From NCBI GenBank assembly GCA_963851415.1, contig CAWKPF010000002.1, positions 65,497 to 129,496 on the forward strand: a stretch of 64,000 nt of DNA. The letters run 5' to 3'. The position numbers and the translations under genes were made by a program. Position 1 is the first letter of the stretch, and the number at the start of each line of letters is the position of its first letter. Of the stretch, positions 45,501 through 64,000 are shown piece by piece. Under the pieces are notes generated by a model, which searched no databases, had not been told where the DNA came from, and saw nothing but the letters and a program-made list of their open reading frames with translations. This DNA is from an uncultured Acidobacteriota bacterium (GTDB lineage Bacteria; Acidobacteriota; Thermoanaerobaculia; Multivoradales; Multivoraceae).

Positions 45501-47281
45501 GCTGCAAAGGCTAGCAGCGGCAGCGCGCCCCGCTCGCCCTCGACCTCGCCGAGGATCTCCTCGACCAGGTGATCGTCTTCGAACCGGTAGCCGTGCTTGA
45601 GCGCCGGCTGCACGACGGCACGTCGCAACGCGCTGCCCGAGAGCGGATTGAGCACGGTCAGGGCTTCGAAGATCGGCGTGAACGCCGGATACCGACCACA
45701 CTCGGCCAGGAAGTCGTCGCGCAACGACAAGAGAATCCGCACGTCGGCCTCGATCGACAGGCGACCGAGCAACTCGGCAAAGCGCTCCTGGACTTCGGGC
45801 GAGCTCTGGGTGAAGAGCTCTTCGAACTGGTCGATCACGAGAAGCGCGTGCTCGTGGTTGCCGCGCCAACGCTTCACCGCCGCCACGGCCTTGGCCGGAT
45901 CGTCGAAGCCGACCAGCTCGCGCACGGCATCGGTGTCTCCGGCGAGCTCGACGGCGAGCGCCTCGGCCAGCGCGGTGACCGGGCGCACTCCGGGTGTCGT
46001 GACCAGCACTCCCCAACCGTCGGGTCGGGCGGGCAGGACCCCGGCTCTCAGGAACGACGTCTTACCGGTGCCGGAGGGACCGATCAGACCGAGCACGTGG
46101 AGACGACGCAGCTTCTTCCACATCGCCTCGACTTCGAGCTCGCGGCCGAAGAAGTACTCGGCGTCGGCTTCGGTGAAGGAGGCGAGGCCGGGGTAGGGCG
46201 TGACGCCCTCTTCGATGGCGCGGGTGGTGGCCTCTTCGAGAGCCCGGGAGAGGACCGCGGCGCTGGCAGGACGGGCGTCCCGGTCGCCGGCGATGCACCG
46301 ACGCAGCACCGGGGCCCAGGGCGTCTTCGCCAGGCGCGGCGGAGTCTCTCGACAGCGCTGCCAGAACTGTCGCCGCTGCTCGGGCGAGCGCACCCCGCCC
46401 GACTCCACCATCTCGGCGAGCACCAGACCGGCGGCGTAGACGTCGGTGCGCGCGTCGAGCGGCTCGCCCTTCGACTGCTCGGGAGCCATGTAGGCAGGGG
46501 TCCCGGCAACGTCGCTCGCCTGCCCGACCAGCGCTCCGGCGATACCGAAGTCCATCACCACGACGCGACCGGCCCGGGTCAGCATGACGTTCTCGGGCTT
46601 CACGTCGCGATGCACGAGCCCGGCGGCGTGGATCGCTTCGAGACCGGCGAGCATCTGGGCGGCGAGGTCGCGTGCCTCGCTCAGATCGAGGGGGCTGCGC
46701 TGGGCGAGAAGCTGCTGCAGGGTTTCGCCGTCGATGTACTCCATGGAGACCAGCTCGTGTCCCTCCAACTCGACCAGATCGAACACCCGGCAGACGTTGG
46801 GCGAGACGACTTCGCGAGCGGTGCGCACCTCCTGGCGAAGGGTTTCGAGGGCCGGACGGTGCTGCAACAGGTCGGCGCGCAGTGCCTTGAGCGCGACATC
46901 GACGCGCAGCTTGAGGTCGAACGCTCGCCACACCTCACCCATGCCACCCGTGCCGAGGAGGGTGCGAATGCGGTATCGGCCACCGAGGATCTGGCCGCGC
47001 TCGAGCGCCTTGCGCGAGGAAGGGAGAGTGCCCGGCTCGGCATCACCCTGGTCTGCGTGGCCCTGTTCTGGGTCGCCCCGGTCTGGGTCGCCCCGGTCGG
47101 CTTCGATCTCGGCGAGGAGCGAGGGCTGCTCGAGACTCAACCGGGCCATGCACGCCAGGCACAGACCGGTGGCCCACGGCTCGTCACTGAGCGGGGTCCC
47201 GCAGTCGGGGCAGAGCGGCGCCTCGTCCGCTCTCGCCCTCCCCTCCAATCGCGGGGCTTCCCCTGTTGGCGTCTCTCCCAA
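42548..47281 (-). CDS. Ser/Thr protein kinase fused to a STAND-type P-loop NTPase, one TM helix and a C-terminal WD40-like beta-propeller region
   Basis: 1577 aa. CPDCG...CLAC ribbon (residues 24-43). Kinase motifs GTGGMGEVW, VALK, HRDVKPEN, DFGIA, GTPAYMAPE (about residues 97-350). PYPGLASFTEADAEYFFGRE + Walker A GPSGTGKTS + Walker B LLVIDQFEE. RKRRRRR + TM IAVAMAVAFLAATVLVVTGFW (44834-44893). WD40-type blades such as GHVGPVYSLDFSPDGLWLVSSGADGSVRIWPV. Confidence 0.9.
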   Translation of the reverse strand: MGETPTGEAPRLEGRARADEAPLCPDCGTPLSDEPWATGLCLACMARLSLEQPSLLAEIEADRGDPDRGDPEQGHADQGDAEPGTLPSSRKALERGQILGGRYRIRTLLGTGGMGEVWRAFDLKLRVDVALKALRADLLQHRPALETLRQEVRTAREVVSPNVCRVFDLVELEGHELVSMEYIDGETLQQLLAQRSPLDLSEARDLAAQMLAGLEAIHAAGLVHRDVKPENVMLTRAGRVVVMDFGIAGALVGQASDVAGTPAYMAPEQSKGEPLDARTDVYAAGLVLAEMVESGGVRSPEQRRQFWQRCRETPPRLAKTPWAPVLRRCIAGDRDARPASAAVLSRALEEATTRAIEEGVTPYPGLASFTEADAEYFFGRELEVEAMWKKLRRLHVLGLIGPSGTGKTSFLRAGVLPARPDGWGVLVTTPGVRPVTALAEALAVELAGDTDAVRELVGFDDPAKAVAAVKRWRGNHEHALLVIDQFEELFTQSSPEVQERFAELLGRLSIEADVRILLSLRDDFLAECGRYPAFTPIFEALTVLNPLSGSALRRAVVQPALKHGYRFEDDHLVEEILGEVEGERGALPLLAFAAAQLWEGRDRERGVLTRRTYEEIGGVAGALARHADATLEEIGEENVVVVRDFFRRLVTAQRTRATWDRDELLSAFEDREAASRVLNVLIDARLVTSYERQSEEEDAEPRHRVEIIHESLLRSWPRLVRWQVRDEDSAQLLDQLRQAASIWEDRGRPDDLLWTGKAFKEYELWREDYSGALSSTEAEFADAMVELSGRKRRRRRIAVAMAVAFLAATVLVVTGFWRRAVDAGRQVEANHLLSLGRSHLPSDPTEKDPTGALAYAMKRLELQDDPAVRRLVMDALWAGPLAIHVQAEHASGRSSEMSSSGTWLAGPVLAEDRLQGRRLYHRDGTTEVLPYPPDLVRELENDALGDMMITQAVPGRELMVDVYLRGFVVLSPPPQGRVLRWENLGTEAFFYVRSSEELVAIAVDGEWREISYWPLDGGMPRELGRLPAGPRAHSSSVAAIAVDDRVCVWQWESPQTGPTDCHDLPSEATGAFLSFDGQLVGSFDPEGRMRMWRRELGRASGEWSRALGRSHDRAFDATNTRWLAWPRGGAAFASVWNLDYPPEMEPLLFSRHQGATHHEVRWGAGGQWILGFTNIGGLTMWPAARRHPFVADGSTDTLSASFSPDGRSLSWGEGAFRGALRHLQRGHVTGTLSKLIQPYSGIRSVSWHPDGRRVMAGEGDGTTWFVDVVSGEARELPQTATARFSGRMVAMATPYPVAVSPDGRYAAGAGGPELLVWSLEAESLGAVDVRVLVPEEKERGPRGPFPPEPSFLGVHFTPDSRKIVASEWDAIRVWDLDDGTFEILGEGFVSQVSRDGRRVFATLGMKQEWGQEAGADPVRIYDLENGDYEVLPNHGVATVVALDPSESILASGDWQGVIRVGPITGEEPHLLLGHVGPVYSLDFSPDGLWLVSSGADGSVRIWPVPDVTKVPIHTLPQDDLLAFLKRLTNFRAVEDPESETGYSIDYDPFPGWADYPDWLPLAADAEEERPTSAGGSS
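47069..47098 (-). repeat. 15-nt tandem duplication inside the kinase gene (encodes DRGDP-DRGDP)
   Basis: Plus strand ttctgggtcgccccg / gtctgggtcgccccg, 14 of 15 identical. It lies in the linker between the zinc ribbon and the kinase domain and is absent from the pseudogene copy. Confidence 0.7.
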
Positions 47282-48100: not shown

Positions 48101-48138
48101 ATCCCTGAGTCCCGATTTCCGTCGACGATCGTTTGGAA

Positions 48139-48199
48139 TCTGGGACCAATTCTAGCGATTCTGGGACAATTGACCACATCTGCCTTACCGATCTGGGAC
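48139..48199 (+). promoter_or_regulatory. three direct repeats of TCTGGGAC in the sigma/TonB-receptor divergent spacer
   Basis: Copies at 48139-48146, 48160-48167 and 48192-48199, spaced 21 and 32 nt apart. Flanks are aaTCTGGGACcaatt, atTCTGGGACaattg, gaTCTGGGACtttt. The last copy lies 15 nt upstream of CGT (48215) and about 48 nt upstream of ATG 48247. Confidence 0.45.
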
Positions 48200-48246
48200 T
48201 TTTCCGTGCGATTCCGTTTCTTCAGAGGAAAAGGGGGAATGGGCCA

Positions 48247-51202
48247 ATGAGCAGGGATCTCCATCGCTTCAGGACCGGGTTCGGCTCTTTGATTCTCTTC
48301 GTCGTGGCCGCGCTGGCGACGACACGGGGGGGCTTTGCACAGGCCGTGACGGGGAACGTCTACGGCACGGTGACCGACTCGGCGGGGCAATCGCTTCCCG
48401 GGGTCACCGTCACCATCGGTGGAATCGGAGCCGATCGCACTCAGTTCACCGACGCGCGGGGGCGCTTCCGTTTCCTGGGCCTCGACCCCGGAGAGTGGCA
48501 TCTCCGCGCTGAGCTCTCCGGCATGGGCTCGCTCGACTTTCCTGGGGTGGAGGTGCGCATCGGTCGCAACACGACGCTCCCGCTGGTGCTCCGACCGGCG
48601 ATGCAGGAAACGCTCACGGTCACTTCGGAGAGCCCCCTTCTGGACGAGCGCGAGCTCACCCAGGGCACCACGGTGACGCAGGTGGAGCTCGAACGGATTC
48701 CCACGGCACGCGATCCGTGGGCGATCGTGGGCCAGACGCCGGGCGTGCTGGTCGATCGCGTGAACGTGGGGGGAAGCGAGTCGGGTCAGCAGTCGAGCTT
48801 CCGGGCACAGGGGGTCGAGTCCCGTTCAGAACGACTGGCAGCTCGACGGAGTCCAGATCACCGATATGTATGGCCCAGGGGCCTCCTCGTCCTACTTCGA
48901 CTTCGACCAGTTCGCGGAGATGCAGTTCACCACCGGCGGCACCGACGTGACCAAGAACACGGCCGGCGTCGGAGTGAACCTGGTGACCAAGCGGGGCAGC
49001 AACGAGTTTCGCGGCTCGGCGCGATTCTTCAACACGAAAGCGCAGGGATACTTCGGAGGCTTCCTGCCTCAGGCACGAGTCAATGTCAACGAAGAGGACA
49101 TGGGTCCCGGACAGTCCCTCGACGACTACAAGGGCGCCCAGATCCGGGAGATCGAGGAGATGGGGTTCGAGGCCGGAGGCGCCCTGGTTCGCGATCGCGC
49201 CTGGCTGTGGGGCTCCTGGGGACAGAACGACATCCAACAGAACGCCGCGACGGGAACCGCCGACGACACCATTCTCGAGAACACTGCACTCAAGCTGAAC
49301 GCACAGTTCAGCCGCGCCAACAGCTTCGTCGCGTCATGGAACAACGGTGACAAGCAGAAATCCGGTCGCGAGGCCGGCAGCACCCGCCCCGACATCACCA
49401 GCTACAACCAGCGTGGCCCCTCCGCGATCTACCGCTTCGAAGATACGCACGTCTTCACCTCGAATCTGTTCGTCACGGGCACCTACTCTCTCAACGACCT
49501 CGGCTTCCAGCTGGCTGCGAAGGGCGGAGTCGGGCCCGACGCTCCAGAGTCGTGGCGCCGCAGCGACGGCGTGTGGCAGGAGAACTACATCAGCGGTAGC
49601 TCCACGTCTCCGGGCGACGAGATCAAGGTCGACTCGTCGTACTTCCTCAACACGGGGAACATCAACCACGAGCTGCGGGTCGGCGGCCGGTTCCGCCGGT
49701 CCGAGAACTCGAGTGTGTTCGCCTGGCCGGGGAAGGACGTCTTCACCTACAACACCACGAGCACCCACTTCGTGACCGCGAAGCGAGGCATCGGGACCCC
49801 GGTGCTCATGGAGTATTTTTCGCTCTGGGCACAGGACACCCTGAGCCTGGGGCGCTTCACGGTCAACGCCGGCTTGCGCTATGACGACCAGAAGGGGCGA
49901 AACCAGGCCGCCCGCGTGCCCGGCAACCCGATGGTGCCAAACGTGCTACCCGAGATCGAGTACGCGGGGGCGGCGCCCGACTTCACCTGGACGAGCCTGG
50001 CGCCCCGACTGGGCGTGACCTATGCCCTCGGCAGCGAGCGTGACACCTTGATCCGAGCCAGCCTGGCCCAGTTCGCGGATGCTCTCGGCTCGCGCTACAT
50101 CGATCGCACGAACCCGGCCGGCAACGTCTACGCCTACTTCGCGCTCCCCTACGTCGACGGCCCGTACACCGGAGACGGCAGCGAGCTCGACGATCCGGCG
50201 CGGGTCGACTTCGCCAACGGCTTCGACCCGGCAGACCCCTCGTCGCTCGATGACCCCGACCGCACCGACCCGGGATTCGATCCGCCGCTCACCACCGAGC
50301 TCGTGATCGGCGTCGAGCACGCGGTGCTCCCCGAGTTCGTGGTCGGACTCACGCTCACGGCACGCAACGTCGACAAGATCGAGGAGCTGAGGCCGATCAT
50401 CCGCAACAGCGACGGCACCGAGCGCACCGTGACCGCAGAGGACTACGTGCTCGACGGGAGCCTGAGCGGCACGATCGACGACCCGAACGCCGGCGGCCCA
50501 GCGAGGAGCTACGACGTGCCGGTCTACGCCCTGCGAGAGGACTTCCAGTTCACCGGCGGTGAGCTCCTGCTCAACGGCGCGCGCGAGCGGGACTACCTGG
50601 GCGCGGCGCTCACCTTTACCAAGCGTTTGGCGAATCGGTGGATGATTCGCGGGTATCTGAACTACGGCAGCGCCGAGTGGAAGGTCCCGGCCGAGTATCT
50701 GGCTCAGAACGACCCCAACAGAGACCAGGACGGCGGGGATCGGGATGGATCTCTGTTCGCCACTCGCTCGGGTGCCGGCGGCAGAGGGGAGCGGTTCCTG
50801 CAGTCGACGTGGACGTCGAACGTGACCGGCCTCTACCAGATCGCTCCCGATCGGCCGTGGGGATTCAACCTGTCGGGAGCGCTCACGGCGCGAGAGGGCT
50901 ATCCCATCCCCTACTTCAACGAGACCACGACCAGCGACGGCCTGTTCCGCCGCATCAGTGTGGTCGGCGACTTCGACGACTACCGGCTACCCACCATCGC
51001 CACCCTGGATCTGAGGTTCGAGAAGGAGTTCAACCTGACCGGCCCGGTCAACATGACCTTCGGGATCGACGCGTTCAACATCACCAACACAGGGACGGCG
51101 ATGTCACGGCGCCGCGACCTGAGCGTGTCGAGTGCGTACTGGCTCGAGGACAACATCTCGCCAAGGATCTGGCGGCTCGGGGTGCGTTTGAGCTGGAAGT
51201 GA
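48247..51202 (+). pseudogene. TonB-dependent receptor with carboxypeptidase-regulatory-like N-domain, carrying a single frameshift near 48810-48814
   Basis: Track ORFs 48133..49350 (signal peptide, VTGNVYGTVTDSAGQSLPGVTV...) and 48866..51202 (barrel, ends ...RLGVRLSWK) are one gene. The +1 frame reads ...GSSPVQNDWQLDGVQITDMYGPG... directly after ...SSFRAQG. The shift sits at a G5 run. Confidence 0.8.
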
Positions 51203-52959: not shown

Positions 52960-54315
52960 TCAGCGCGAGCTCTTCAGCTTTTCCCCGAGTCGGCGTGCGG
53001 TGATCTCCACACCGCGACCGTGGATGACGTCTTCGTGATCGCCGGGAATGTCGACCAGAGTGATGTCCTTGGCAAGTCCCCTCCAGCCCAGTTCGGGGAA
53101 CTGGTCCTTGAACCAGCTTTCTGCGCCGTGGCGGAAGAGAATGACGGGAGCCGACAGTGCCTGCGGGCGATACCGTCGAAAGGCTCTCAGACAGCTCCGT
53201 TCCACGTAGCTGGGCCGCAGCGACTCCGGCAGCGGGATCCGCAGTGCGGTTCGGCCCCGGATCGCCAGACGCGTGGGAAGAGTCCGCATGGCGGCAGTCT
53301 GATCCCGCACGAGCGACAGCACGTTACCCAGCACGCTGCGGCCGAAGTAGACCAGGCGCTCCGCCACACCGAGTTTCGCGGTATTGGCGCGATGCCGACC
53401 GGCTCGCTCCTCGAGCGTCTCGTGCCAGGGGAAGAGGGTGTCGAACATCGCCAGAATCTCGACGCCCTCCCCGGCATCGGTCAGCTGGCGGGCAATCTCG
53501 AAAGCGACCACCCCGCCGAAGGAATAGCCGCCAAGACGATAGGGCCCCTTCGGTTGAAGCGACCGAATCTCCGCCACATGACGGGCGGCGAGTTGCTCGA
53601 TGCTCTCGGGAAAGGGCTCGCTGCCATCGGCACCCGGAGGCGCCAGCCCGTACACCGGCTGGTCCGAGCCGAGCTCTCGGGCCAGATCGTAGTAGTGGAT
53701 CGTCCGACCTGCCACGCAATGGGCACAGAACAGTGGAGGCTGTGAGCCCCGCGGTTGAATCTCGACCAGCAGCGAGTCTCGGCCGACGGCCGGCGCCCCT
53801 TGCAGCACCTCGGCGAGCCTCGCCACCGTGGGTCGCTGGAACACCGTATCCACCTGGATCGTCTGCCCGAGTCGCTCTCGAATCACGACCACGAGTCGCA
53901 GAGCTCGCAGAGAATGGCCGCCCAGGTCGAAGAAGTCATCGTGGATTCCGACAGGCTCGACGCCGAGCAGCTCGGAGAAGATGGTCACGAGGGTCTCTTC
54001 CAGGGCGTCGCGGGGCGCGCTGTCCTTCGAGGTCGCGCGTTCGGTGGCGGGCTCGGGAAGCGCGTCGCGATCGATCTTGCCGTTGACCGTTCGCGGCATC
54101 GCGTCCAACGTCACGAACATCGCCGGCACCATGGGCTCGGGCAACCGCTCTCGGAGGTGGCGGCGCAACTCCTCCGGCGTTGGAGCCGATCGGGAGTCGG
54201 GAACGACGTAGGCGACGAGCTTGGTCTCGCTTCTCACGCCGAGCTCGTCGAGACGCCGGGCGAGTGCCTCCCGCTGTGGCTCACCGAGTCGTTCGATTCT
54301 CGCTCGCAGTTCCAT
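52960..54315 (-). CDS. NRPS fragment: A-domain C-terminal part (A9-A10), PCP and thioesterase
   Basis: ATG 54315 (MELRAR...) overlaps the upstream stop (TGATG). KLVAYVVPD, LPEPMVPAMF (A9), NGKIDR (A10), FFDLGGHSLRAL (PCP), GYSFGGVVAFE (TE GxSxG). Confidence 0.8.
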   Translation of the reverse strand: MELRARIERLGEPQREALARRLDELGVRSETKLVAYVVPDSRSAPTPEELRRHLRERLPEPMVPAMFVTLDAMPRTVNGKIDRDALPEPATERATSKDSAPRDALEETLVTIFSELLGVEPVGIHDDFFDLGGHSLRALRLVVVIRERLGQTIQVDTVFQRPTVARLAEVLQGAPAVGRDSLLVEIQPRGSQPPLFCAHCVAGRTIHYYDLARELGSDQPVYGLAPPGADGSEPFPESIEQLAARHVAEIRSLQPKGPYRLGGYSFGGVVAFEIARQLTDAGEGVEILAMFDTLFPWHETLEERAGRHRANTAKLGVAERLVYFGRSVLGNVLSLVRDQTAAMRTLPTRLAIRGRTALRIPLPESLRPSYVERSCLRAFRRYRPQALSAPVILFRHGAESWFKDQFPELGWRGLAKDITLVDIPGDHEDVIHGRGVEITARRLGEKLKSSR

Positions 54316-57300
54316 CAGCGAATGGCCTTCACGATGACCATCGAGTCCGCCCACCAGGCATCCTCAGTGTCCTCGGGGATCTCCACAGGCTGCACCCGAA
54401 GCGAGAGCGATGAAAAATGCTCCAGCAGGGCCCGTTGGTGTCGACGGCTGAGGGAGTCGATCTCGGTGGACAGATAGCTGAAGACCCCTCCGGGGCGAAG
54501 GTGCCTCGCGGCAATGACAAAGAAGTGCTCCGCAAAGGTGATTCCCTCCACCATGTAGCGCAGGAACTCTTCCTCGTCGAGCGGAACGGCGTGAAAGAAG
54601 ATGCCATCGTACAGGCCGAGTCGATCTTCGACATCCTGCCACCGGCCCTCGAAGAGACGGATGTCGCGCTCGGCGAACCGTTCCCGAAACGGCCGGAAGA
54701 ACCGCTCCACACAGGACTGGTTTGCCTCGACCACAGAGTGGGATCGCACGCCGAGCTCCTGGATGAGTGCAGCGGACACGCCCCGACCGAAGCCGACTTC
54801 GAGAACGTCGCCGTGGTCCTGCGTGACGTCTTCGGCCATCGCTCTCATCACCGGGATCTGCCAGTCCTCCATGATCTCCTGCTCGGTCGGATCGTTGTGC
54901 TCCCGGTCGGGGACGGTCCCGTCGAAATCGCCGGTGGCGCCCCGCACGAACCGACGGGCGGTCCGATCGAGGTGCAGCAGATCGGCCGTCAGCTCGTCGA
55001 GGCTCTGCTCGAGGAGCCAGTTGCGCTGCGCGTCACGAGGCGGGCGAACGAAGTCTTCCTCATCGATACGAAGGGTGAGCTCGAACGCCTCTCGCCGGCG
55101 AGTGAACGAGGTCGCGGAGTCCCCGACTGCTCGGAGGAGACGCTCGACGGTATCAGTGTCGAGTGTCGAGAGACGCTCTGCGAGACCACCCGCCTCACGC
55201 GCGACGACGACGGCCTCGACGACACCTGAATGGGAACAGAGTGCCGCCTCGATCTCGCTGGGCTCGATCCGGTGTCCTCGAATCTTGAGCTGTTGGTCCA
55301 CGCGTCCCAGGAACTCCAGCTCGCCGCACTCGAGGAACCGAACGCGGTCTCCCGTGCGGAACAGTCGCCCTCCCTCGGCAAAGGGGTTGGTGAGAAAGGC
55401 GGGGTCGTCACGACCCCAGTACCCGCGCGCGATACCGGTACCTCCGAGATAGAGCTCTCCCGGCGCCCCGGCAGGCGTGGGCCTCCTCTCCTCGTCGAGC
55501 ACGTAGGCCAGACAGTCCGCGATGGGGCGGCCGATGGGAACGCGACCGCCCCCCTCGAGCTCCGTACAGTCGCAGACAGTGCTCCAGACCGTGGCCTCGG
55601 TGGGCCCGTACTCATTGAAGAGGCGGCAGTCGGGAAGCACCGCCCGGTGGGCCTGCACCACTCCCGGAGGGCAGGCTTCGCCCGCGACGATCACGACCCT
55701 GAGGGAGCGAAGGCTCGGATCGAGAATCTCTCGATAGAGAGCTGGAATGGACAGCAGGTGAGACACCTCGTGCCGCTGGATGATCTCTCGAATCTCGTGC
55801 GGATCCGGAAGATGTGTGCCCGGCGGCAGGCAAAGGGTCGCCCCTTCCCCCAGGGTCCAGAAGATCCCGGCCACGGAGCTATCGAAGGCGAACGAGGACA
55901 AGAGCAGGAACGAACGCAGCGATTCGCAGCCGTAGTACTGGGTTCGAGCCTGGGTCGAGTGCCAGAGATTCTCATGAGTGACCATCACACCCCGGGGCTC
56001 CCCGGTCGAGCCCGAGGTGTAGAGGATGTAGGCGAGGTCGCCGGGGTCCGGGGTTGTGGGAAGGTCGTCGCACTCCTCTGTGAAGTCCTCGACATAGAGA
56101 ATGTTGTCTGCCCCGAGACCCGCGCCGAGCGCCCGGGTGGTGAGCAAGAACTTCGACTGGGTGTCTGCGAGAATCTGCCGGGCCCGTTCGACCGGATAGG
56201 CCGGATCCAGAGGGACGTAGGCGCCTCCGGCCTTGAGCACACCGAGAACGGCGAGCAGCATGGAGGGCGAACGGGGCACGAAGATGCCGACGGGCTCCCC
56301 CCGCCCGACCCCCAGGCGCACCAGCTCGCGTGCGAGCGAGTTGGCGCGCCCGTTCAGCTGGCGGTAGCTCCACGCTTCCTCAGCCGCCACGATCGCGACT
56401 CTGTCCGGCGTCCGGCCCGCGACGCTCTCGAACCCGCGGTGCCAGAGCCTCTCCCCTCCAGCTTGCAGTGCCGGCCCCCGCACGGCTTGCGGAGCGGCCA
56501 TCTGGATCGTTTCCAGGGGAGAGTCCGGGCGGGTTGCGAGCTGGTCGAGCGCAGTGCCGAAGTGGTCAGCCATGCGCTCGATTGCGGGCTCGCCGAAGCG
56601 AGCGCGGTCGAAGATGAACGAGACGACCAGTCGGTCTCCCGGCTGAACCACTACTGCCAGAGGAAGGTTGGTGTGGGCATCGAAACGCTCGTCCTCGATC
56701 GCTAGCGTGGAGGGTGGCTGTTCAGGCACCCTGTAGTTGGCATAGGAGAACAGACTGTCGAAGAGCGGGCGACCGGCTCTCCCGATCCAGCTCTGGATCT
56801 TCCGTAGCGAGGTGTGCTCGTAGCGGCGGCCGTGAGCCTGCCGCGCCTGCAGGTCACGCAACCACTCCCCCGCCGCGACACCCGAGGGCACCTGCGCTCG
56901 ACAAGGAGTGGTGTTCATGAACAGACCCACCATCTCCTCGGCGCCGTCGAGTCCCGAAGGGCGTCCCGCGGTCGTCGCACCACAGAGAATGTCGTCACGC
57001 CCGGTGTAGCGCGCGACCAGAACGCACCACGCTCCGAGCAGCAAGGTGCTCAGGGTGATGCGCTCACGCCGAGCCGCTGCGATCAACGGGGCGCTCGGCA
57101 CCAGCAGGTCGCGGCGAGCATGACCCTGCCCGGAGCCCGCTGGAAGATCGAACGGAGTGGGCTCGGCGTCCGCCAGCTCCTGTTGCCAGTAGCGCTTGGA
57201 TTCCTCTTCGTCGGAGTGGGCCGCGAGCCAGTCGAGGAAATCCGAATACGCTCTTGGCTCGGCCAGCTCATCTCCACGGTAGCACTCGAACACCTCGCGT

Positions 57301-58352
57301 AGCACCACAAGTCGAGACCAGCCGTCGAGAATCATGTGGTGATAGCTCCACAGGAACCGCCACCGATTCTCGCCAGTTCGGGCCAGGGCCAACCGCAAGA
57401 GTGGCGCCTTCTCCAGATCGAAGCCACGCTCCTTGTCTGCCTCGCTCCAGGCCACGATCTCGTCCTCCTCGCTGCGTCCCCGCCAGTCCAGGAGCTCGAG
57501 TGTGGGAGTCGCGTCGGACTCTACCAACTGTAGAGGTGTTTCCCGATCGTGCCAGAGAAAGCGAAGGCGAAGGGCATCGTGGCGTCGCGTCACGGTTCGC
57601 CATGCGCCTTCGAGTCGCGCCGGATCGAGCTCGCCCTCGATCCGACAGGAGTACTGCTCGTGGTAGACGCCGGCACCCTCGCTCTCGAGGCTGTGAAACA
57701 GCATCCCTTCCTGGAGCGGCGAAAGCGGCCTTTCTCGCGGCGCGCAAGGAGCGGCGATCGTGGTTGGACCGGTAGTGCGCTCCGCCGCCGAGGCAAGCCG
57801 TTCCACAGTTGGATGTTCGAACAGGTCAGAGGGCTCCACGGAGATCCCTGCCTCGCGCGCCCGGGCGACGATTCGAATCGCGGTGATGGAGTCGCCGCCC
57901 AGCTCGAAGAAATCGTCGTGGATTCCGACTCGCTGCAACCCGAGCAGCTCGCGCCAGATCTCCGCCAGTTTCTCCTGCGCGGGTGTGCAGGGCTCGGCGA
58001 AGGTCGAGGAGGCCTCGGGCTTCGGCAGGGACCCGCGATCGACCTTTCCCCTCGAGGTGAGAGGAAGCTCGTCGAGCCGAACGAACACGGAGGGAACCAT
58101 GAAATCCGGCAGTCTGCCAGCCACCCGAGAGCGGAGATCGTCGGCTGCGATCTCACGATCGGCGACGTAGTAGGCGGTGAGCCCGGCCCGCTTCTCGTGG
58201 GCCCGTTCCGGCTGGTATCCAATCTCGTTCAGCCGAGCCCGCACGGTGGCCGAGTCGATTTCGTCATCGAGCTCGGCGAGCGCCTCGTCACGCTCCTTGT
58301 GGCCGAGTCGAACGTCCCAGCTGTAGGGAAGCGCGTAGTTGTGGAAACCCAC
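54315..58352 (-). CDS. NRPS: end of module 1 (A9-A10, PCP), then module 2 C domain and A domain (A1-A8) followed by a GAMT-like methyltransferase domain
   Basis: LPDFMVPSVF / RGKVDR, FFELGGDSITAI, PLSPLQEGMLFH + HHMILDGWS (C), LAYILYTSGSTGEPRGV, NEYGPTEATV, LKIRGHRIEPSEIE (A8), then ...MEDWQIPVMRAMAE...VLEVGFGRGVSA... to the stop. The N-terminal 45 residues continue the PP-loop domain of the upstream ORF. Confidence 0.85.
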   Translation of the reverse strand: MGFHNYALPYSWDVRLGHKERDEALAELDDEIDSATVRARLNEIGYQPERAHEKRAGLTAYYVADREIAADDLRSRVAGRLPDFMVPSVFVRLDELPLTSRGKVDRGSLPKPEASSTFAEPCTPAQEKLAEIWRELLGLQRVGIHDDFFELGGDSITAIRIVARAREAGISVEPSDLFEHPTVERLASAAERTTGPTTIAAPCAPRERPLSPLQEGMLFHSLESEGAGVYHEQYSCRIEGELDPARLEGAWRTVTRRHDALRLRFLWHDRETPLQLVESDATPTLELLDWRGRSEEDEIVAWSEADKERGFDLEKAPLLRLALARTGENRWRFLWSYHHMILDGWSRLVVLREVFECYRGDELAEPRAYSDFLDWLAAHSDEEESKRYWQQELADAEPTPFDLPAGSGQGHARRDLLVPSAPLIAAARRERITLSTLLLGAWCVLVARYTGRDDILCGATTAGRPSGLDGAEEMVGLFMNTTPCRAQVPSGVAAGEWLRDLQARQAHGRRYEHTSLRKIQSWIGRAGRPLFDSLFSYANYRVPEQPPSTLAIEDERFDAHTNLPLAVVVQPGDRLVVSFIFDRARFGEPAIERMADHFGTALDQLATRPDSPLETIQMAAPQAVRGPALQAGGERLWHRGFESVAGRTPDRVAIVAAEEAWSYRQLNGRANSLARELVRLGVGRGEPVGIFVPRSPSMLLAVLGVLKAGGAYVPLDPAYPVERARQILADTQSKFLLTTRALGAGLGADNILYVEDFTEECDDLPTTPDPGDLAYILYTSGSTGEPRGVMVTHENLWHSTQARTQYYGCESLRSFLLLSSFAFDSSVAGIFWTLGEGATLCLPPGTHLPDPHEIREIIQRHEVSHLLSIPALYREILDPSLRSLRVVIVAGEACPPGVVQAHRAVLPDCRLFNEYGPTEATVWSTVCDCTELEGGGRVPIGRPIADCLAYVLDEERRPTPAGAPGELYLGGTGIARGYWGRDDPAFLTNPFAEGGRLFRTGDRVRFLECGELEFLGRVDQQLKIRGHRIEPSEIEAALCSHSGVVEAVVVAREAGGLAERLSTLDTDTVERLLRAVGDSATSFTRRREAFELTLRIDEEDFVRPPRDAQRNWLLEQSLDELTADLLHLDRTARRFVRGATGDFDGTVPDREHNDPTEQEIMEDWQIPVMRAMAEDVTQDHGDVLEVGFGRGVSAALIQELGVRSHSVVEANQSCVERFFRPFRERFAERDIRLFEGRWQDVEDRLGLYDGIFFHAVPLDEEEFLRYMVEGITFAEHFFVIAARHLRPGGVFSYLSTEIDSLSRRHQRALLEHFSSLSLRVQPVEIPEDTEDAWWADSMVIVKAIR

Positions 58353-61300
58353 GTTCCTGGCGATGCACCCAGATCCCCGCGTCGTTGATCAGGCAATTGG
58401 TGGAGCGGCCGGTATCCTCGGGCCGGATCCAGGGGGCACGCTCGTTCAGAGAACGACAGCACCTCCTCGAGGCTCACGTCGCAGTAGCGATAGAAGTCGA
58501 CGTACGAGGTCTCTTCGAACACCGAGTCGTCGCGGAACATCGATACGTCGAGGTTCCGGGACACCGCATCGTCCATGCGGTGATAAGCCTTGCGCGCCTC
58601 GAGCACCGTACGGTCGATCTCCGATGGGTCGCGCAGACCGATGCGGAAGAAGTCCGCGAGTCGGGTCTCGAAGATCTGGCCACGAGAGAGCCCCGTCACG
58701 ATGACACGCAGACCGCGCTCGCGAGCGAGCGAGACGGCGAGGGTATAGATGGTCTTGAAGCAGCCCTGGCAGACATTGCTGAAGCGCGCGAGGCTGTCCG
58801 CGAAGATGGTGTTCATCGCCGGAGTGCTGCCGAAGACGAGCTCGAGGCCGAGATCCTCGGTGGCACGCCGGATATTCTCCTTGGCACCGTCGGAGATGAA
58901 GCCGTTGTCGAGCGTGAAGACGAGAGGGGTCCGCCCGAGGGCAACGACCTGGTAGAGGGCATAGGTGCTGTCCTTGCCTCCGCTCAGGAGCATGATGCAA
59001 TCCTGGCCCCTGGCGTTTGGTCGACACTTCTCGTCGAGCTCGGACGCGAGCTCCTCCATCGTGCCGAAGTAGCTGCGAGCCTCTGCCTCGTAGGTCGAGA
59101 AGTCGCGACAGATATTGCACACCCCGTCCGAGTCGAGCAACGCTTCAGGATGGCGCGAGGTGAGCCCACAGCGAACACAAAAGCGCTCCTCCTCCCCACC
59201 GACGAGATCGACGACGCACTCCTCGATCTCGGGCATCTCGAGAAGGATCCGTTCGATCTCTGCCGGCTCGACCCGCGCCCCTCGCACCTTGAGTTGACGA
59301 TCGGCCCGACCGAGGAACTCGAGACAACCGTCGGGCCGCTGGCGGCAGAGATCGCCGGTGCGGTAGCGACCGTGGAATCGGTCACCTCCACGGTAGCCCT
59401 CGGCGACGCCCGGCCCTTCGACCACCAATTCGCCCTCCTCCCCCGGCGCTGCATCGACCGTCGCTCGAGTGCCATCGATGGCAAATCCGATCGGCACGGA
59501 CGCAGCCGTGTCGCGTTCGGGGTCGAAACGGTACACGACGCAGCCCACCGTGGCTTCTGTCGGTCCGTACTCGTTGAAGATCGTGATCCGACCTTCGGAG
59601 CGGCCCACGATCGCCCCAGCGAGCTCGGAGCGTAGGTCCTCACCGCCGACGACGAGCAGACTCAGTCTCTGAGGCATGGGCTCGCGCGAGCGAAGGATCG
59701 CCAGGTGAGAAGGAGTGAGCTTCACGACGTCCACTTCGTCGCGCTCGAAGACGTCGACGATCGAGAGGTCCGGCCCCCTCTGGGGCTCCGGATAGACGAC
59801 GACGCGTCCGCCAGATACCAACGGCACGAAGAGTGACGTCACCGTCAGATCGAAAGCGACAGACGAATGCAGGGCAAAGGCGAGGGGGCCATCCGAAGCA
59901 TAGGCGCGATGTGCCCAACCCACATAGTGGGCGAGGGCCCGGTGTGAGACCTCGACCCCCTTGGGACGCCCGGTCGACCCCGAGGTGTAGATGACGTAGG
60001 CGAGATCGTCTTTCGAGACGCGGTGCGGCGCACCCGACTCGTCGCCCCCCGTCTGGGTATCGTCGTCGAAGACCGCACAGGCGCCCGAGTCCTCGATCAG
60101 CCCGTTGCTTCGCTCTTCAGGATGACGTGGGTCGAGGGGAAGATAGGCTGCTCCTGCACCGAGCACTCCGAGGATCGCCGCCACCAGATCCGGAGTGCGC
60201 CGCATCCGGACTGCCACTACTGCGCCGGGGCCCGCACCCTGGCGACGTGCCTCCGCGGTCCACTGGGCCATGCGCGAAGCGAGCTCCCGGTAGCTCCATC
60301 GCTCTCCGGCGCCACTCAGAGCAACGGCCTCCGGAGTCGCCTCGGCCTGTCGCAGAAACATGTCGATTACCGTCGGGGCGGGCTCGATGGGCTGGTCGAG
60401 ATCGTCGAGCATGACGTCCAGGATGGCGAGATACTCTTGTGCGATCTGGTCGCGCCGACTCCGCGGGAATGAGTCTTCGTTCAGATCGAAGGACAGGGTC
60501 GTCTGTCCCAGCCCACCGAAGTCGTGTACCTGGAGTCGCAGGCTGTGGGCACGATCGCCATAGCCGGGATGCACCCACTCTGGCTCTGCCCTGGAACCGG
60601 CAATCTGTGGGATCCCGGCGGTGATGTAGTTGAGCACCACGTCGTAGGGCCGGGAGTGGACGACGTGGCTGCTTCCTGGCCGGGCGTTCAGAAGCATCCT
60701 CTGCGATTCGTCCCGAGTCTTGACGAAGAGAGAGCGGAAGGTCTCGCCCTCTTCGATTCGCGCATGCATCGGGAAGATCTCGATGAACAGGCCGATCGTC
60801 TCCTTGAAGGCCGCGGTGGGACGATTGTGTGCTGGAGCGAGGAACGCAGGGCTCCGATTGCCCGCCACACGGTAGAGCAAGGCGAAGAGGGCAGTTGCGT
60901 AGAGTTGAAAGCGAGCCAGGTCGGACGTGAGCCCACGGATTCCGTCGGACGAAGCGAGCTCTGCGAGTCGGCGTTCGCGCTCTTCGCCGAGAGCGTACGA
61001 GCTTCTGACCGTTCGGGAGCCACGACGCGAGGGTCTGTGCCCGTAGAAGACACAGGGCGCGAAAGGCTCTTCGAGCTTCTCTCGCCAGTAGGCGACGGCC
61101 TTCTCATGGCGAGGGCTCATCACCTGGGACCGCTCCCAGTCGACGTAGTCTTCGAACTGAGGCAGAGGCTCGGTCTCGGATAGGGTGTTCTCGAGGACGC
61201 GCCGGTAAAGCTCCTCGAGTCGGCCGAAGAGGATGCCACAAGACCAGCCGTCGGTCACCAGATGATGCTGGTTCAAGAAGAATCGGGCAGTTCCGTCACC

Positions 61301-61669
61301 CAGTCTCACCAGAACCGCATCGTAGAGACACTTCGCGAGGTCGAACTGGCGTGCGCTTCGAGTGGCGACCCACTTCGTGTACGCCTGGGCATCCGCGAGC
61401 TCGATCTCCTCCAACGAGGCAGGCACCTGCGAGAGCACCTCGCGGTACGGGACACCTACGCTCTCGAAGATCACCGTACGCAGAGCGTCACTGCCGGCGA
61501 CCAGCGCATCGAAGGCCGCCCGCAATGCCTCGACATCGATCGATCCCTCGCACACCTGCGACAAGGCCATGTTGTAGAGCGGCGCGTCGGGATCCAACTT
61601 CTGCCCGGTCCAAAGCAGAAACTGACCGCGCGACAGGTTGGACCGATCGAACGGAGAACGCTCGTCCAT
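58229..61669 (-). CDS. NRPS module 1: N-terminal C domain and A domain (A1-A8) followed by an embedded PP-loop ATP-pyrophosphatase (AANH) domain; the 3' end is out of frame
   Basis: SRGQFLLW, HHLVTDGWS (C), LAYVIYTSGSTGRPKGV, NEYGPTEATV, LKVRGARVEPAEIE (A8), then CVRCG...CNIC, LLSGGKDS, CQGC. After ...LSFSERA (about 58440) the reading continues in other frames into ORF 54315..58352, so the last 69 codons of this track ORF look like off-frame readthrough. Confidence 0.85.
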   Translation of the reverse strand: MDERSPFDRSNLSRGQFLLWTGQKLDPDAPLYNMALSQVCEGSIDVEALRAAFDALVAGSDALRTVIFESVGVPYREVLSQVPASLEEIELADAQAYTKWVATRSARQFDLAKCLYDAVLVRLGDGTARFFLNQHHLVTDGWSCGILFGRLEELYRRVLENTLSETEPLPQFEDYVDWERSQVMSPRHEKAVAYWREKLEEPFAPCVFYGHRPSRRGSRTVRSSYALGEERERRLAELASSDGIRGLTSDLARFQLYATALFALLYRVAGNRSPAFLAPAHNRPTAAFKETIGLFIEIFPMHARIEEGETFRSLFVKTRDESQRMLLNARPGSSHVVHSRPYDVVLNYITAGIPQIAGSRAEPEWVHPGYGDRAHSLRLQVHDFGGLGQTTLSFDLNEDSFPRSRRDQIAQEYLAILDVMLDDLDQPIEPAPTVIDMFLRQAEATPEAVALSGAGERWSYRELASRMAQWTAEARRQGAGPGAVVAVRMRRTPDLVAAILGVLGAGAAYLPLDPRHPEERSNGLIEDSGACAVFDDDTQTGGDESGAPHRVSKDDLAYVIYTSGSTGRPKGVEVSHRALAHYVGWAHRAYASDGPLAFALHSSVAFDLTVTSLFVPLVSGGRVVVYPEPQRGPDLSIVDVFERDEVDVVKLTPSHLAILRSREPMPQRLSLLVVGGEDLRSELAGAIVGRSEGRITIFNEYGPTEATVGCVVYRFDPERDTAASVPIGFAIDGTRATVDAAPGEEGELVVEGPGVAEGYRGGDRFHGRYRTGDLCRQRPDGCLEFLGRADRQLKVRGARVEPAEIERILLEMPEIEECVVDLVGGEEERFCVRCGLTSRHPEALLDSDGVCNICRDFSTYEAEARSYFGTMEELASELDEKCRPNARGQDCIMLLSGGKDSTYALYQVVALGRTPLVFTLDNGFISDGAKENIRRATEDLGLELVFGSTPAMNTIFADSLARFSNVCQGCFKTIYTLAVSLARERGLRVIVTGLSRGQIFETRLADFFRIGLRDPSEIDRTVLEARKAYHRMDDAVSRNLDVSMFRDDSVFEETSYVDFYRYCDVSLEEVLSFSERACPLDPARGYRPLHQLPDQRRGDLGASPGTWVSTTTRFPTAGTFDSATRSVTRRSPSSMTKSTRPPCGLG

Positions 61670-61670
61670 C

Positions 61671-61913
61671 TCAGTCCTTGCGCCGCTCGACGTAGCGGGC
61701 GATGGAGGACACGCTCCGAAAGTTCTCGATGGTCACATCCTCTGCGGGCACGACGATGCCGAATTCTTCCTGCAGAAAGGTGACCAGGAGCATGACTCCG
61801 ATCGAGTCGATCGGATGATGGGTGAGGAGGTCGTCGTCCGCGGCGGGTATCGCACTCGGCTCACCGAAGATCTCGACGGCGAGGAACTGGGCTATGGTTT
61901 CTGTCGTTGTCAC
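61671..61913 (-). CDS. free-standing acyl/peptidyl carrier protein
   Basis: 80 aa. The phosphopantetheine site context is LTHHPIDSIGVMLLVTFL. Its stop lies 1 nt before the NRPS start, and it overlaps the upstream adenylating-enzyme gene by 4 nt. Confidence 0.8.
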   Translation of the reverse strand: MTTTETIAQFLAVEIFGEPSAIPAADDDLLTHHPIDSIGVMLLVTFLQEEFGIVVPAEDVTIENFRSVSSIARYVERRKD

Positions 61914-63484
61914 GATCGGCCGTCTCCATCCTCGCTCAGGGCGGGGTAATCGATCTTCCCGGAAGACAGGCGCGGGAACGATTCCACGAGCTCGATGCGT
62001 CGAGGAACCGCGTGCGGCGGGACGAGAGACCGGAGATGCGCGATGACCTCCCGCGGTTCGAGCATCCTGCCGGCTCGCACCTTGACTGCCGCCTCGATGG
62101 CGCGGCTGTCACCGTCGGGCAGCGCGAACGCGGCGGCCTCCTCGACCGCGGGATGGGCGAGCAGGGCGTGCTCGATCGCTTCGAGCTCGATCCTGTAGCC
62201 CCGGATCTTGACCTGCCGATCCAATCGTCCTACGAACCGGAAGCCATCTCGCTCGAGCACCTCGACCAGGTCCCCGGTCCGGTAGAAGACCTCCTCTCGC
62301 CCGCCATCACGACGGCGCCGGTGGAAAACCTTCTCGTTGAGATCCGGCCGGTTCCAGTAGCCGGCCATAAGGGTGGGGCCACGCACCAGAAGCTCGCCCA
62401 CGGCGCCGATGCCGACCGGCGCACCGTGGTCGTCGACAACGATGCACTCCATCCCCGATGCTGCCTCGCCGATGGGGATCGGGGCTTCGTCGTCTGCGAT
62501 CGGTGGGACGTCGTAGCAGGTACAGCCGTTGGTTTCGGCCGGGCCGTACATGTTGTTGAAGCGAACATCGGGGAGTAGTTCCATGAGGTGGCGCAGGTGC
62601 TTGGTCGGGGTGCTTTCTCCGCCGTAGATGATCCAGCGTAGCTCGCTGAGGTCCTGCTTCTCGAGGGCACCGCGCGTGAGCAGCTGAACGAGGGCGAAGG
62701 GCACGGTGAAGAACACGCTGATGCGCTCCTGCGAAAGGAGGGCCGCGTAGCTCGCCGGCATCTTCGTGTGGGCCTCGGGGACCACCACCGTCGCTGCGCC
62801 GGCCAGGGCGGCAGCGAAATAGTCGAAGATCGACATGTCGAAGTGGAGCGGCGCCTGGTTGGTCAGTCGATCTTCCGGACGGAGGCCATACCTCGTGCAT
62901 GCCCAGCGGCAGAAGGCGAGGCAACTCTCGTGAGTGTGCATGATGCCCTTGGGCCGCCCCGTCGAGCCAGAGGTGTAGATGATGTAGGCGAGGTCATCAC
63001 CGATGACGTCGGGATCCGGCCCAGAATCTTCGGCCGCCGCATGGGCGTCGCTCCACGATTCGGTTCGAACGTCGAGCTCCCCTGGCGCGAGACCCACGAC
63101 CTGCGTCAGCGCGACCCCCTCTTGTTCGAGCACCGCCGCGACCGTGTCCGCCAGTTTCGGGGCGCTCACGAGATGGCGAATACCGCAGTCTCTCAGCACC
63201 TCGGCCAGCTCGGACACCGGGGCAGCGGGATTGAGCGGAACGTAGGCGGCACCCGCACGCAGCACGCCGTGGACGCCGATGCCGGTTTCGGCACTCTTGT
63301 GGAGCAGTATCCCAACGCGGTCGCCACGTCGAACGCCACCGTCGACGAGCAGTCGCGCAAGTCCGTTGGCTTCCCGGGCGAGATCTGACCACGAGAGAGT
63401 GCGCTGCGCGAAACAGACGGCGTCGCGCCCCGAGTGGTGCTCGACGTTGTGACGCAAGACGTCGGGAAGCGTGAGTCTCGTCAT
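61910..63484 (-). CDS. free-standing adenylate-forming enzyme (A-domain/DltA-like)
   Basis: 524 aa. LAYIIYTSGSTGRPKGI, FDMSIFDYF, NMYGPAETNG, YRTGDLV, GRLDRQVKIRGYRIELEAIE, SSGKIDY. Confidence 0.85.
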   Translation of the reverse strand: MTRLTLPDVLRHNVEHHSGRDAVCFAQRTLSWSDLAREANGLARLLVDGGVRRGDRVGILLHKSAETGIGVHGVLRAGAAYVPLNPAAPVSELAEVLRDCGIRHLVSAPKLADTVAAVLEQEGVALTQVVGLAPGELDVRTESWSDAHAAAEDSGPDPDVIGDDLAYIIYTSGSTGRPKGIMHTHESCLAFCRWACTRYGLRPEDRLTNQAPLHFDMSIFDYFAAALAGAATVVVPEAHTKMPASYAALLSQERISVFFTVPFALVQLLTRGALEKQDLSELRWIIYGGESTPTKHLRHLMELLPDVRFNNMYGPAETNGCTCYDVPPIADDEAPIPIGEAASGMECIVVDDHGAPVGIGAVGELLVRGPTLMAGYWNRPDLNEKVFHRRRRDGGREEVFYRTGDLVEVLERDGFRFVGRLDRQVKIRGYRIELEAIEHALLAHPAVEEAAAFALPDGDSRAIEAAVKVRAGRMLEPREVIAHLRSLVPPHAVPRRIELVESFPRLSSGKIDYPALSEDGDGRS

Positions 63485-63486
63485 GG

Positions 63487-64000
63487 TCAGAGTCCGAGTA
63501 GACGTGCGATCGTCAGGCGCTGGATGTCGGAGGTGCCACCCCAGAGCACGGTTCCGATCGAGTCCCGAAGGTCACGCTCACATCCGGTTTCCGTCAGGTA
63601 CCCACGTCCGCCGTGGATTCGCACGGTATCGAGGCCGGACTCGAGGGCGCTCTCGGCAACGAACAGCTTGGCCGCGGCTGCCTCGAGATGGGCCGAGTGC
63701 CCGTTCATCCGGAGAGCTGCGACACGATAGACCAGTAGACGTGCGGCTTCGAGTCGCACCTTCATGTCGGCGATCCGGTTCGACACCGACTGAAACTTGC
63801 CGATCGTCTGCCCGAACTGTCGACGCTGGCGCGCAAACCGAACCGCCGAGAGCAACTCTCGCTCCATCATTCCGACGTGGCTGGCCAGCATGCAGCTGCG
63901 TTCCCAGGCCAGCGAATCCGAAGCGATCGCGAGACCACTCCCTTCCGGTCCGATTCGGCCGTCGTCCGCGGCCAGACAATCCTCGAATGCCAGGGCACCG
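63487..64000 (-). CDS. acyl-CoA dehydrogenase family protein (C-terminal part; gene runs off the window)
   Basis: The frame stays open from 63487 to the window end. It reads ...GSGLAIASDSLAWERSCMLASHVGMMERELLSAVRFARQRRQFGQTIGKFQSV...RIHGGRGY...GGTSDIQRLTIARLLGL, typical of the ACAD C-terminal helical domain. Confidence 0.8.
   Translation of the reverse strand, partial: GALAFEDCLAADDGRIGPEGSGLAIASDSLAWERSCMLASHVGMMERELLSAVRFARQRRQFGQTIGKFQSVSNRIADMKVRLEAARLLVYRVAALRMNGHSAHLEAAAAKLFVAESALESGLDTVRIHGGRGYLTETGCERDLRDSIGTVLWGGTSDIQRLTIARLLGL

Follow-up and report, generated by a model that had tools for sequence, protein, structure and literature searches.

An asparagine-coded adenylation domain interrupted by a PP-loop ATP-pyrophosphatase domain in nonribosomal peptide synthetases of many phyla

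The stretch of DNA analysed here, called the window in what follows, comprises 64,000 nucleotides of contig CAWKPF010000002.1 from an uncultured Acidobacteriota bacterium (assembly GCA_963851415.1). Towards its end it carries, on the minus strand, the genes of a nonribosomal peptide synthetase (NRPS) whose first adenylation (A) domain is interrupted by a PP-loop ATP-pyrophosphatase domain of the AANH group, hereafter the insert. An initial annotation, made from the letters of the window alone, had proposed such a domain within the A domain of module 1, and it does lie there, between the core motifs A8 and A9. The motifs it had recognised (A8, CVRCG, CNIC, SGGKDS, CQGC, YRYCDV, A9, and A10) were each recovered where it had placed them, although the limits it had drawn (58217-59185, ~320 amino acids [aa]) were too narrow, the domain extending over about 58182-59194 and ~337 aa. 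The two open reading frames (ORFs) concerned and the features of the insert are the following.

58229..61669, minus strand: NRPS ORF1, with a condensation (C) domain, the core of the first A domain (A1 to A8), the first ~252 aa of the insert, and an out-of-frame tail
59252-59293, minus strand: A8 motif LKVRGARVEPAEIE, from the translation of ORF1
58182..59194 (about), minus strand: inserted PP-loop ATP-pyrophosphatase domain with the fold of N-acetyl sugar amidotransferases (NASATs), between A8 and A9, ~337 aa once the frames are repaired
59108..59179, minus strand: zinc (Zn) ribbon tetracysteine CVRC-x16-CNIC (CVRCG at 59165-59179, CNIC at 59108-59119), 100% conserved in homologues
58967-58984, minus strand: PP-loop SGGKDS, invariant (148/148 cluster representatives)
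58760-58771, minus strand: CxGC (CQGC, with C967 and C970), invariant, at the N-terminus of the helix before beta-4 in the structural model
58475-58492, minus strand: YRYCDV (C1063), its Cys conserved in 65% of 71 homologues
58433..58461, minus strand: first +1 frame slip, from frame 0 to frame 1, located by tblastn of homologues
58393-58395, minus strand: third Cys, C1091, within DTGRSTNC; its codon lies in the frame-1 piece, and it is present in 147/148 representatives
58345..58352, minus strand: second +1 frame slip, at the run gggttt, where frame 1 gives way to frame 2, located by tblastn of homologues
58083-58112 and 58035-58052, minus strand: A9 (LPDFMVPSVF) and A10 (RGKVDR), where the same A domain resumes after the insert
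54315..58352, minus strand: NRPS ORF2, with the end of the insert, the C-terminal subdomain of the first A domain, a first peptidyl carrier protein (PCP1), a second C domain, the core of the second A domain, and a guanidinoacetate-methyltransferase-like insert

In the repaired protein, Pfam recognises Condensation at residues 12-334, AMP-binding at 439-759, AMP-binding_C at 1161-1207, and PP-binding at 1231-1292, with the insert lying between the two parts of the A domain and covered by no Pfam family. This is the architecture of an interrupted A domain: a foreign domain at the canonical a8-a9 site, an A domain that is otherwise complete, and a carrier domain next, a layout that recurs in most of 80 homologous loci. 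From its sequence, the insert is predicted to be a genuine and catalytically intact tailoring domain.

Three frames encode the insert in the window. Frame 0 extends to ...SFSERA, the frame-1 piece is PWIRPEDTGRSTNCLINDAGIWVHRQERG (58348-58434, minus strand), and the frame-2 piece is FHNYALPYSWDVRLGHK, starting with FHNYALPYSW from 58346 downward. The initial annotation had read the insert from two ORFs, which overlap out of frame, and had missed the middle piece with its invariant motif. When five full-length homologues are compared by tblastn with ORF1 and ORF2, which together make ~7.3 kb of NRPS, the two +1 slips are found and none else. These are probably consensus errors of long-read sequencing rather than gene decay, because the repaired copy retains all the residues that are invariant in the family, the contig is 4.74 Mb long, many database homologues have comparable out-of-frame tails, and a further slip is likely near 48.8 kb. 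There (~48800-48870, plus strand), the frame plot of G+C content at third codon positions points first to ORF 48133..49350, whose product has a CarboxypepD_reg domain, and then, without an intervening stop codon, to the frame of ORF 48866..51202. A single gene of ~1000 aa has probably been cut in two here by a further +/-1 indel, as would fit an error-prone long-read assembly. The contrary reading is that both slips are real and that the window copy is a pseudogene yielding no functional domain in this genome. In its favour, the slips lie within ~90 nt of each other and have the same direction, hence do not compensate, and the public record carries the frameshifted ORF. We regard decay as highly improbable, since besides the arguments just given the rest of the ~7.3 kb is free of slips and the second slip falls on a homopolymer run.

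The fusion recurs widely. In a collection with one genome per species, 290 stretches encode a relative, and 80 of these were kept as loci and read. The 80 are 56-71% identical and come from roughly a dozen phyla, as judged by record titles, with Acidimicrobiia, Planctomycetota, Gemmatimonadota, Acidobacteriota, Nitrospirota, Proteobacteria, Cyanobacteria, and Chloroflexota among the source groups; one belongs to a cultured isolate, Saltatorellus ferox Poly30. In most of them the whole module is a single uninterrupted ORF of ~1400-1900 aa. Searched exhaustively, 1.84 billion cluster representatives (clusters at 50% identity) yielded 568 proteins at E<=1e-30. Among the best 150 of the 568, nearly all are long NRPS proteins with the insert mostly near residue 900. 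The few names given by the sources mention adenylation or carrier functions only. Recurrence in hundreds of independent genomes, with the module in one ORF in most of the 80 loci, rules out the assembly chimera that the initial annotation had named as a possible refutation.

To which family does the insert belong? The repaired 352-aa segment matches the NCBIfam model TIGR03573 (WbuX, N-acetyl sugar amidotransferase) with E 1e-25 over model positions 2-320 of 344, and the score of 91 bits lies under the curated cut-off of 203.2 bits, so that the segment is not a NASAT by threshold. An AlphaFold2 model built from 62 homologues (pLDDT 92.1, pTM 0.90) has as its best Foldseek match the Legionella NASAT 8WEX (LpNASAT; E 1.4e-11, TMq 0.65, TMt 0.57, ~385 columns). 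The next structural neighbours come well after it: they are the thiolating AANH enzymes TtuA (E about 4e-7, TM about 0.4), YcfA, and NcsA, followed by asparagine synthetase, TilS, and the [4Fe-4S] enzyme mmLarE. The matches to TIGR03573 and 8WEX lie well outside what chance would give. A search of the Protein Data Bank (PDB) with the single insert sequence gave weak matches only, and the family profile did better; its top sequence match is 8CNZ, the [4Fe-4S] LarE of Methanococcus maripaludis, with E 7e-8 confined to the region from the PP-loop to the CxxC, its match to TtuA 5MKO has E 0.04, and that to the "nitrile synthetase" 9LEI is weak (E 0.15). Against QueC models the repaired window insert has no match at E<=0.01, so that it is not placed in that family either; precomputed matches to the QueC family PF06508 exist on some homologues. 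Canonical NASATs contain Zn and bear the signature CxxC..[GN]xCxxC together with the PP-loop SGGxDS (PMC10607449), and both motifs are present in the insert as CVRC...DGVCNIC and SGGKDS. NASATs turn an acetamido sugar into an acetamidino sugar with ammonia from a HisH/HisF-like partner; the context of the insert is an NRPS module, and no glutaminase is among the neighbour families present in at least 3 of 62 homologous loci.

The cysteines set the insert apart from the NASATs. Among 71 homologues, the four ribbon Cys, C967 and C970 (in NVCxGCFK), and C1091 (in DTGRSTNC) are 100% conserved. Among the 148 cluster representatives, CxGC is found in 148 and STNC in 147, the sole exception being the frameshifted ORF of the window itself. 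By contrast, in 76 canonical full-length NASATs extracted from genome loci, the conserved Cys are the four of the ribbon only. An hhalign comparison of the insert family with these NASATs (probability 97.9) covers the N-terminal half only, and the segment "SL.RFSNVCxGCFKT" falls in a gap; aligned by eye, GRSTNCLIND corresponds in NASATs to GTYSKYNSIDD, a stretch without Cys. In the profile alignment, the CxxC of the insert falls on the CxxC of mmLarE (8CNZ). In the model the CxGC stands at the start of the helix before beta-4, the place in the topology where TtuA-type enzymes have their cluster ligands. The Fe-S (iron-sulfur) AANH enzymes that insert sulfur combine a PP-loop with a CxxC...C triad, and C967, C970, and C1091 provide such a triad. 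In the LarE of Thermotoga, an SGGxDS motif accompanies a CXXC-C set (C92, C95, C172) that binds a sulfide-delivering [4Fe-4S] cluster (PMC9283937). CtaC, the thioamide synthetase of closthioamide biosynthesis, belongs to the Fe-S AANH enzymes and works on carrier-bound peptides, with D77 and S78 in its PP-loop and C154, C157, and C284 as cluster ligands (PMC6772006, PMC7183216); the initial annotation had rightly named it as a maker of thioamides on carrier-bound substrates. From the second Cys of the CxxC to the distal Cys, there are 121 residues in the insert and 127 in CtaC. By analogy with these enzymes, we infer that C967, C970, and C1091 bind a [4Fe-4S] cluster. The Cys of YRYCDV (C1063), which the initial annotation had taken as the distal ligand, is rejected for its 65% conservation, the invariant third Cys being C1091 in GRSTNC. 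The mixture of NASAT-like and TtuA-like features that had been noted from the motifs holds.

The host A domain shows an equally strict pattern, which the initial annotation had overlooked. Read from the alignment, the ten specificity positions of all 71 host A domains spell DLTK[IVM]GE[VI][GA]K (the last position is gapped in three), which is the Stachelhaus code of Asn, the Asp code having His in place of Glu322. Across this Asn-coded set the C and A cores are only ~35-48% identical to those of the window. Such strict coupling in spite of so divergent cores argues for Asn as the substrate of the insert or at least as a required recognition element.

The organisation of the gene cluster is also conserved. 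Besides ORF1 and ORF2, the window contains the following genes.

63487..64000, minus strand: 3' part of an acyl-CoA dehydrogenase-like gene, which runs off the window end
61910..63484, minus strand: stand-alone adenylating enzyme (Pfam AMP-binding and AMP-binding_C; NCBIfam TIGR01733, 383 bits, above cut-off)
61671..61913, minus strand: stand-alone carrier protein of 80 aa, with its Ser in IDSIGVM, syntenic in homologous loci
52960..54315, minus strand: ORF3, with A9/A10 of the second A domain, a second peptidyl carrier protein (PCP2), and a thioesterase (TE), with the same break in homologues

According to the domain maps of the loci, the recurring order is adenylating enzyme, carrier protein, [C-A(core)-insert-A(C-terminal part)-T], and C-A-T...TE, where T is the carrier domain. 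The insert-bearing module is usually the first of the assembly line and accepts an acyl group. The adenylating enzyme is found upstream in 32 of the 62 loci and an acyl-CoA dehydrogenase in 26; a glycosyltransferase also recurs. For example, the acyl-CoA dehydrogenase-like neighbour of locus L002 matches the window at 63490-63999 with 49% identity (tblastn). The adenylating enzyme of the window keeps Asp235, has the hand-read code DMFFIGMGCK, and probably loads the starter unit. The match to TIGR01733 above its cut-off, the kept Asp235, and the adjoining carrier protein and acyl-CoA dehydrogenase make an amino or modified acyl acid a possible starter, in preference to a plain fatty acid. Glutaminases, cysteine desulfurases, sulfur carriers, and ClbP-like peptidases are absent from the frequent neighbours in the 62 loci. 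In locus L001 the module is one ORF of 1877 aa with the layout C-A(insert)-T-E, where the ~450 aa after the carrier domain are an epimerisation (E) domain (HHLAVDAVSW); this longer size class (1740-2000 aa) accounts for 24/80 homologues, and the window copy has no E domain.

The second A domain of the window is also interrupted after A8 (54318-55170, minus strand), by a domain resembling guanidinoacetate N-methyltransferase (human GAMT 3ORH, E 1.5e-16). This second insert is recognised neither by Pfam (E<=0.001) nor by NCBIfam (E<=0.01) and is not a canonical NRPS methyltransferase domain. The same A domain is split over two genes (junction 54313-54317, minus strand): ORF2 stops straight after the methyltransferase insert, and the ATG of ORF3 (MELRARIERL...) overlaps the ORF2 stop codon. 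The split looks natural, since the homologues P0129 and P0148 stop at the same point. The A domain that follows the Asn module, at 55230-56500 (minus strand) in the window and in loci L001-L080, has the conserved code DSAL[IVM]AEVW, which is kept alike in the 17 domains that carry the methyltransferase insert and in the ~29 that lack it. This code may be histidine-like.

A membrane protein of family HupE_UreJ_2 (PF13795, E 8e-46) is encoded in 24/62 loci by clustering, and a direct count places it within 0-7 kb in 22. It stands near the module-1 gene in several phyla (e.g., loci L004, L011, L031, and L079); the window breaks off within the upstream acyl-CoA dehydrogenase gene and does not show it. 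HupE/UreJ proteins are known as Ni/Co permeases, and this neighbour suggests that the products may have to do with metals. Elsewhere in the window, two large tandem proteins (39004-41958 and 42548-47281, minus strand) have Ser/Thr kinase and nSTAND1 NTPase domains, the second with WD40 repeats in addition; the pair is apparently unrelated to the NRPS.

What would the insert do? All its relatives have one step in common: with ATP they adenylate a carbonyl oxygen, and AMP is then displaced. They differ in what displaces it: in NASATs it is ammonia, which yields an amidine, and in TtuA, LarE, and CtaC it is sulfide bound to the cluster, which yields a thiocarbonyl; in QueC and PesC, AMP is eliminated and a primary amide becomes a nitrile (PMC13060819). 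The reading we tentatively favour, on analogy with the sulfur-inserting enzymes and with somewhat less than even confidence, is thioamidation of the Asn side chain in cis, with the substrate amide, the Fe-S cluster, and the sulfur chemistry all putative. The A domain would load Asn on the downstream carrier domain, whose arm would bring Asn or N-acyl-Asn to the embedded domain. There an amide oxygen, the likeliest being that of the side-chain carboxamide, would be adenylated with ATP, and sulfide held on the [4Fe-4S] cluster of C967, C970, and C1091 would displace AMP to give the thioamide (thio-asparagine), as in CtaC, TtuA, and [4Fe-4S] LarE. This outcome is favoured because the invariant Cys triad is foreign to NASATs and aligns with known cluster ligands, and the position of thiolating TtuA, YcfA, and NcsA as the next structural neighbours after 8WEX supports it. 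Several observations weigh on the other side. By whole fold and by hidden Markov model (HMM), the nearest family is that of the amidine-forming NASATs (TM 0.65, vs ~0.4 for the sulfur insertases). The three Cys might hold a second Zn instead, as in QueC. To our knowledge, no product is known from any of these clusters. A cysteine desulfurase or sulfur carrier is lacking among the frequent neighbours in the 62 loci, which is not decisive, since IscS-dependent LarE shows that none is required there. Finally, an O-adenylated primary amide can simply eliminate AMP to give a nitrile (PMC13060819).

This last course is a real, if minority, possibility. The side-chain amide of carrier-bound Asn would be adenylated, AMP would leave from the AMP-imidate to give beta-cyanoalanine, and the Cys triad would bind a structural metal. 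The always Asn-specific host A domain makes a primary carboxamide always available, and dehydration is the chemically simplest outcome for it, needing no external nucleophile or partner, in keeping with the lack of an ammonia- or sulfur-supplying partner among the frequent neighbours. There is AANH-type precedent for the route from amide through AMP-imidate to nitrile in PesC, QueC, and the auranthine enzyme (PMC13060819). The PF06508 matches on some homologues and the weak match to 9LEI go the same way, although the latter (E 0.15) is not significant, the repaired window insert itself lacks a QueC match at E<=0.01, and the invariant CxGC...C triad has no obvious part in a dehydration. True NASAT chemistry, in which ammonia attacks the activated amide of the Asn side chain or of the N-acyl group to give an amidine, accounts well for the closest family by HMM and fold and for the Zn-ribbon signature CxxC..GxCxxC with its PP-loop. 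It seems unlikely in view of the 91 bits against a cut-off of 203, the restriction of the hhalign match to the N-terminal half, the three additional invariant Cys absent from canonical NASATs, and the lack of a HisH/HisF-like glutaminase among the frequent neighbours, such a glutaminase being the usual companion of WbuX-type enzymes. The target might also be the N-acyl backbone amide, through CtaC-like thioamidation or through attack of the Asn side-chain N to form a cyclic acyl-amidine (a dihydropyrimidinone). The insert usually sits in a module that takes an acyl group from a carrier protein via its N-terminal C domain, NASATs act on N-acyl (acetamido) groups (PMC10607449), and CtaC acts on backbone amides of carrier-bound chains (PMC6772006, PMC7183216). 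We give this target little credence, as it is a pure inference tied to no known product and, save in the cyclisation variant, leaves the strict Asn specificity unexplained.

A PP-loop domain within an A domain seems to be new. The 2020 categorisation of interrupted A domains contains none of the relevant terms (PMC8341866), and a 2024 review treats methyltransferase, oxidase, and ketoreductase inserts, with monooxygenase as auxiliary domain (PMC11355689). The initial annotation knew of no such case, and we likewise found no description of a PP-loop-interrupted A domain in the searched full-text literature, with a small residual chance that one exists outside the searchable literature. Membership of the insert in the Fe-S AANH group, in principle CtaC-like, is suggested by analogy and is unproven. 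It is conceivable, though we would not count on it, that the insert is the first domain to form thioamides in line (in cis) within canonical NRPSs and marks a large, widespread family of thio-asparagine acylated peptides. Thioamidated nonribosomal peptides have been called "exceedingly rare", with closthioamide as the sole bacterial example in 2019 (PMC6772006). The residue after Asn is possibly histidine and would often be methylated by the embedded guanidinoacetate-methyltransferase-like domain, and the products may be metal-binding compounds, given the frequently adjoining HupE/UreJ-type membrane protein. In any of its forms, as thioamide, nitrile, or amidine, the chemistry of a PP-loop insert would add ATP-driven amide activation to what NRPSs do on their carriers. 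Genome mining has probably missed this class of natural products, since it is represented by 568 clusters, yet the names given to its members cite adenylation or carrier functions only. The strict coupling with Asn provides a clear substrate hypothesis, and Saltatorellus ferox Poly30 is a cultured carrier.

Among known systems, the interrupted A domains of TioS, KtzH, and PchF have the same construction: a catalytic domain at a8-a9, after which the A domain resumes, and which presumably acts on the carrier-bound residue. The inserts that the reviews describe are methyltransferases, ketoreductases, oxidases, and monooxygenases, a set from which the PP-loop ATP-pyrophosphatase class is absent. 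ClbN-type modules, which initiate with N-acyl-D-Asn to build the colibactin-type prodrug motif, have a starter C domain, A(Asn), T, and E. This is the layout of the L001 module; the A domain of ClbN has no insert, and no ClbP-like peptidase is among the frequent neighbours of the insert. QueC, ToyM, and the asparagine-synthetase-like nitrile synthetase PesC would share with the insert the ATP-dependent adenylation of a primary amide oxygen. They belong to other sub-families, start from a carboxylate, and use free or ribosomal substrates, and the Zn motif of QueC is not present in the insert.

With the NASATs (WbpG, WbuX, PseA; 8WEX) the insert has in common the fold (TM 0.65), the Zn ribbon, SGGKDS, and presumably the activation of an amide carbonyl by ATP. 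NASATs are free-standing and work on nucleotide sugars, whereas the insert is embedded in the A domain of an NRPS, scores below the NASAT cut-off, differs in its C-terminal half, carries three further invariant Cys, and lacks a glutaminase partner among its frequent neighbours. TtuA, TtcA, NcsA, and [4Fe-4S] LarE have the PP-loop ATPase core and a CxxC at the same topological position, and TtuA shares in addition an N-terminal Zn finger. The TtuA and LarE types differ in their substrates (tRNA or a pyridinium cofactor precursor), in fold (TM about 0.4), and in the spacing of the third Cys, which is 77 in Thermotoga LarE.

The insert and CtaC both have a PP-loop and, as judged from published residue positions, a CxxC...C triad at similar spacing, and CtaC works on carrier-bound substrates, turning amides into thioamides with ATP. 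Two primer-derived sequences of Ccel_3258 (ctaC) were matched by nothing in the genome collection. CtaC belongs to a non-canonical pathway of anaerobes and is a stand-alone protein, working in trans on a beta-alanine oligomer at its backbone amides, whereas the insert is part of the NRPS chain (in cis), is coupled to Asn, and occurs in metagenome-assembled genomes of many phyla.

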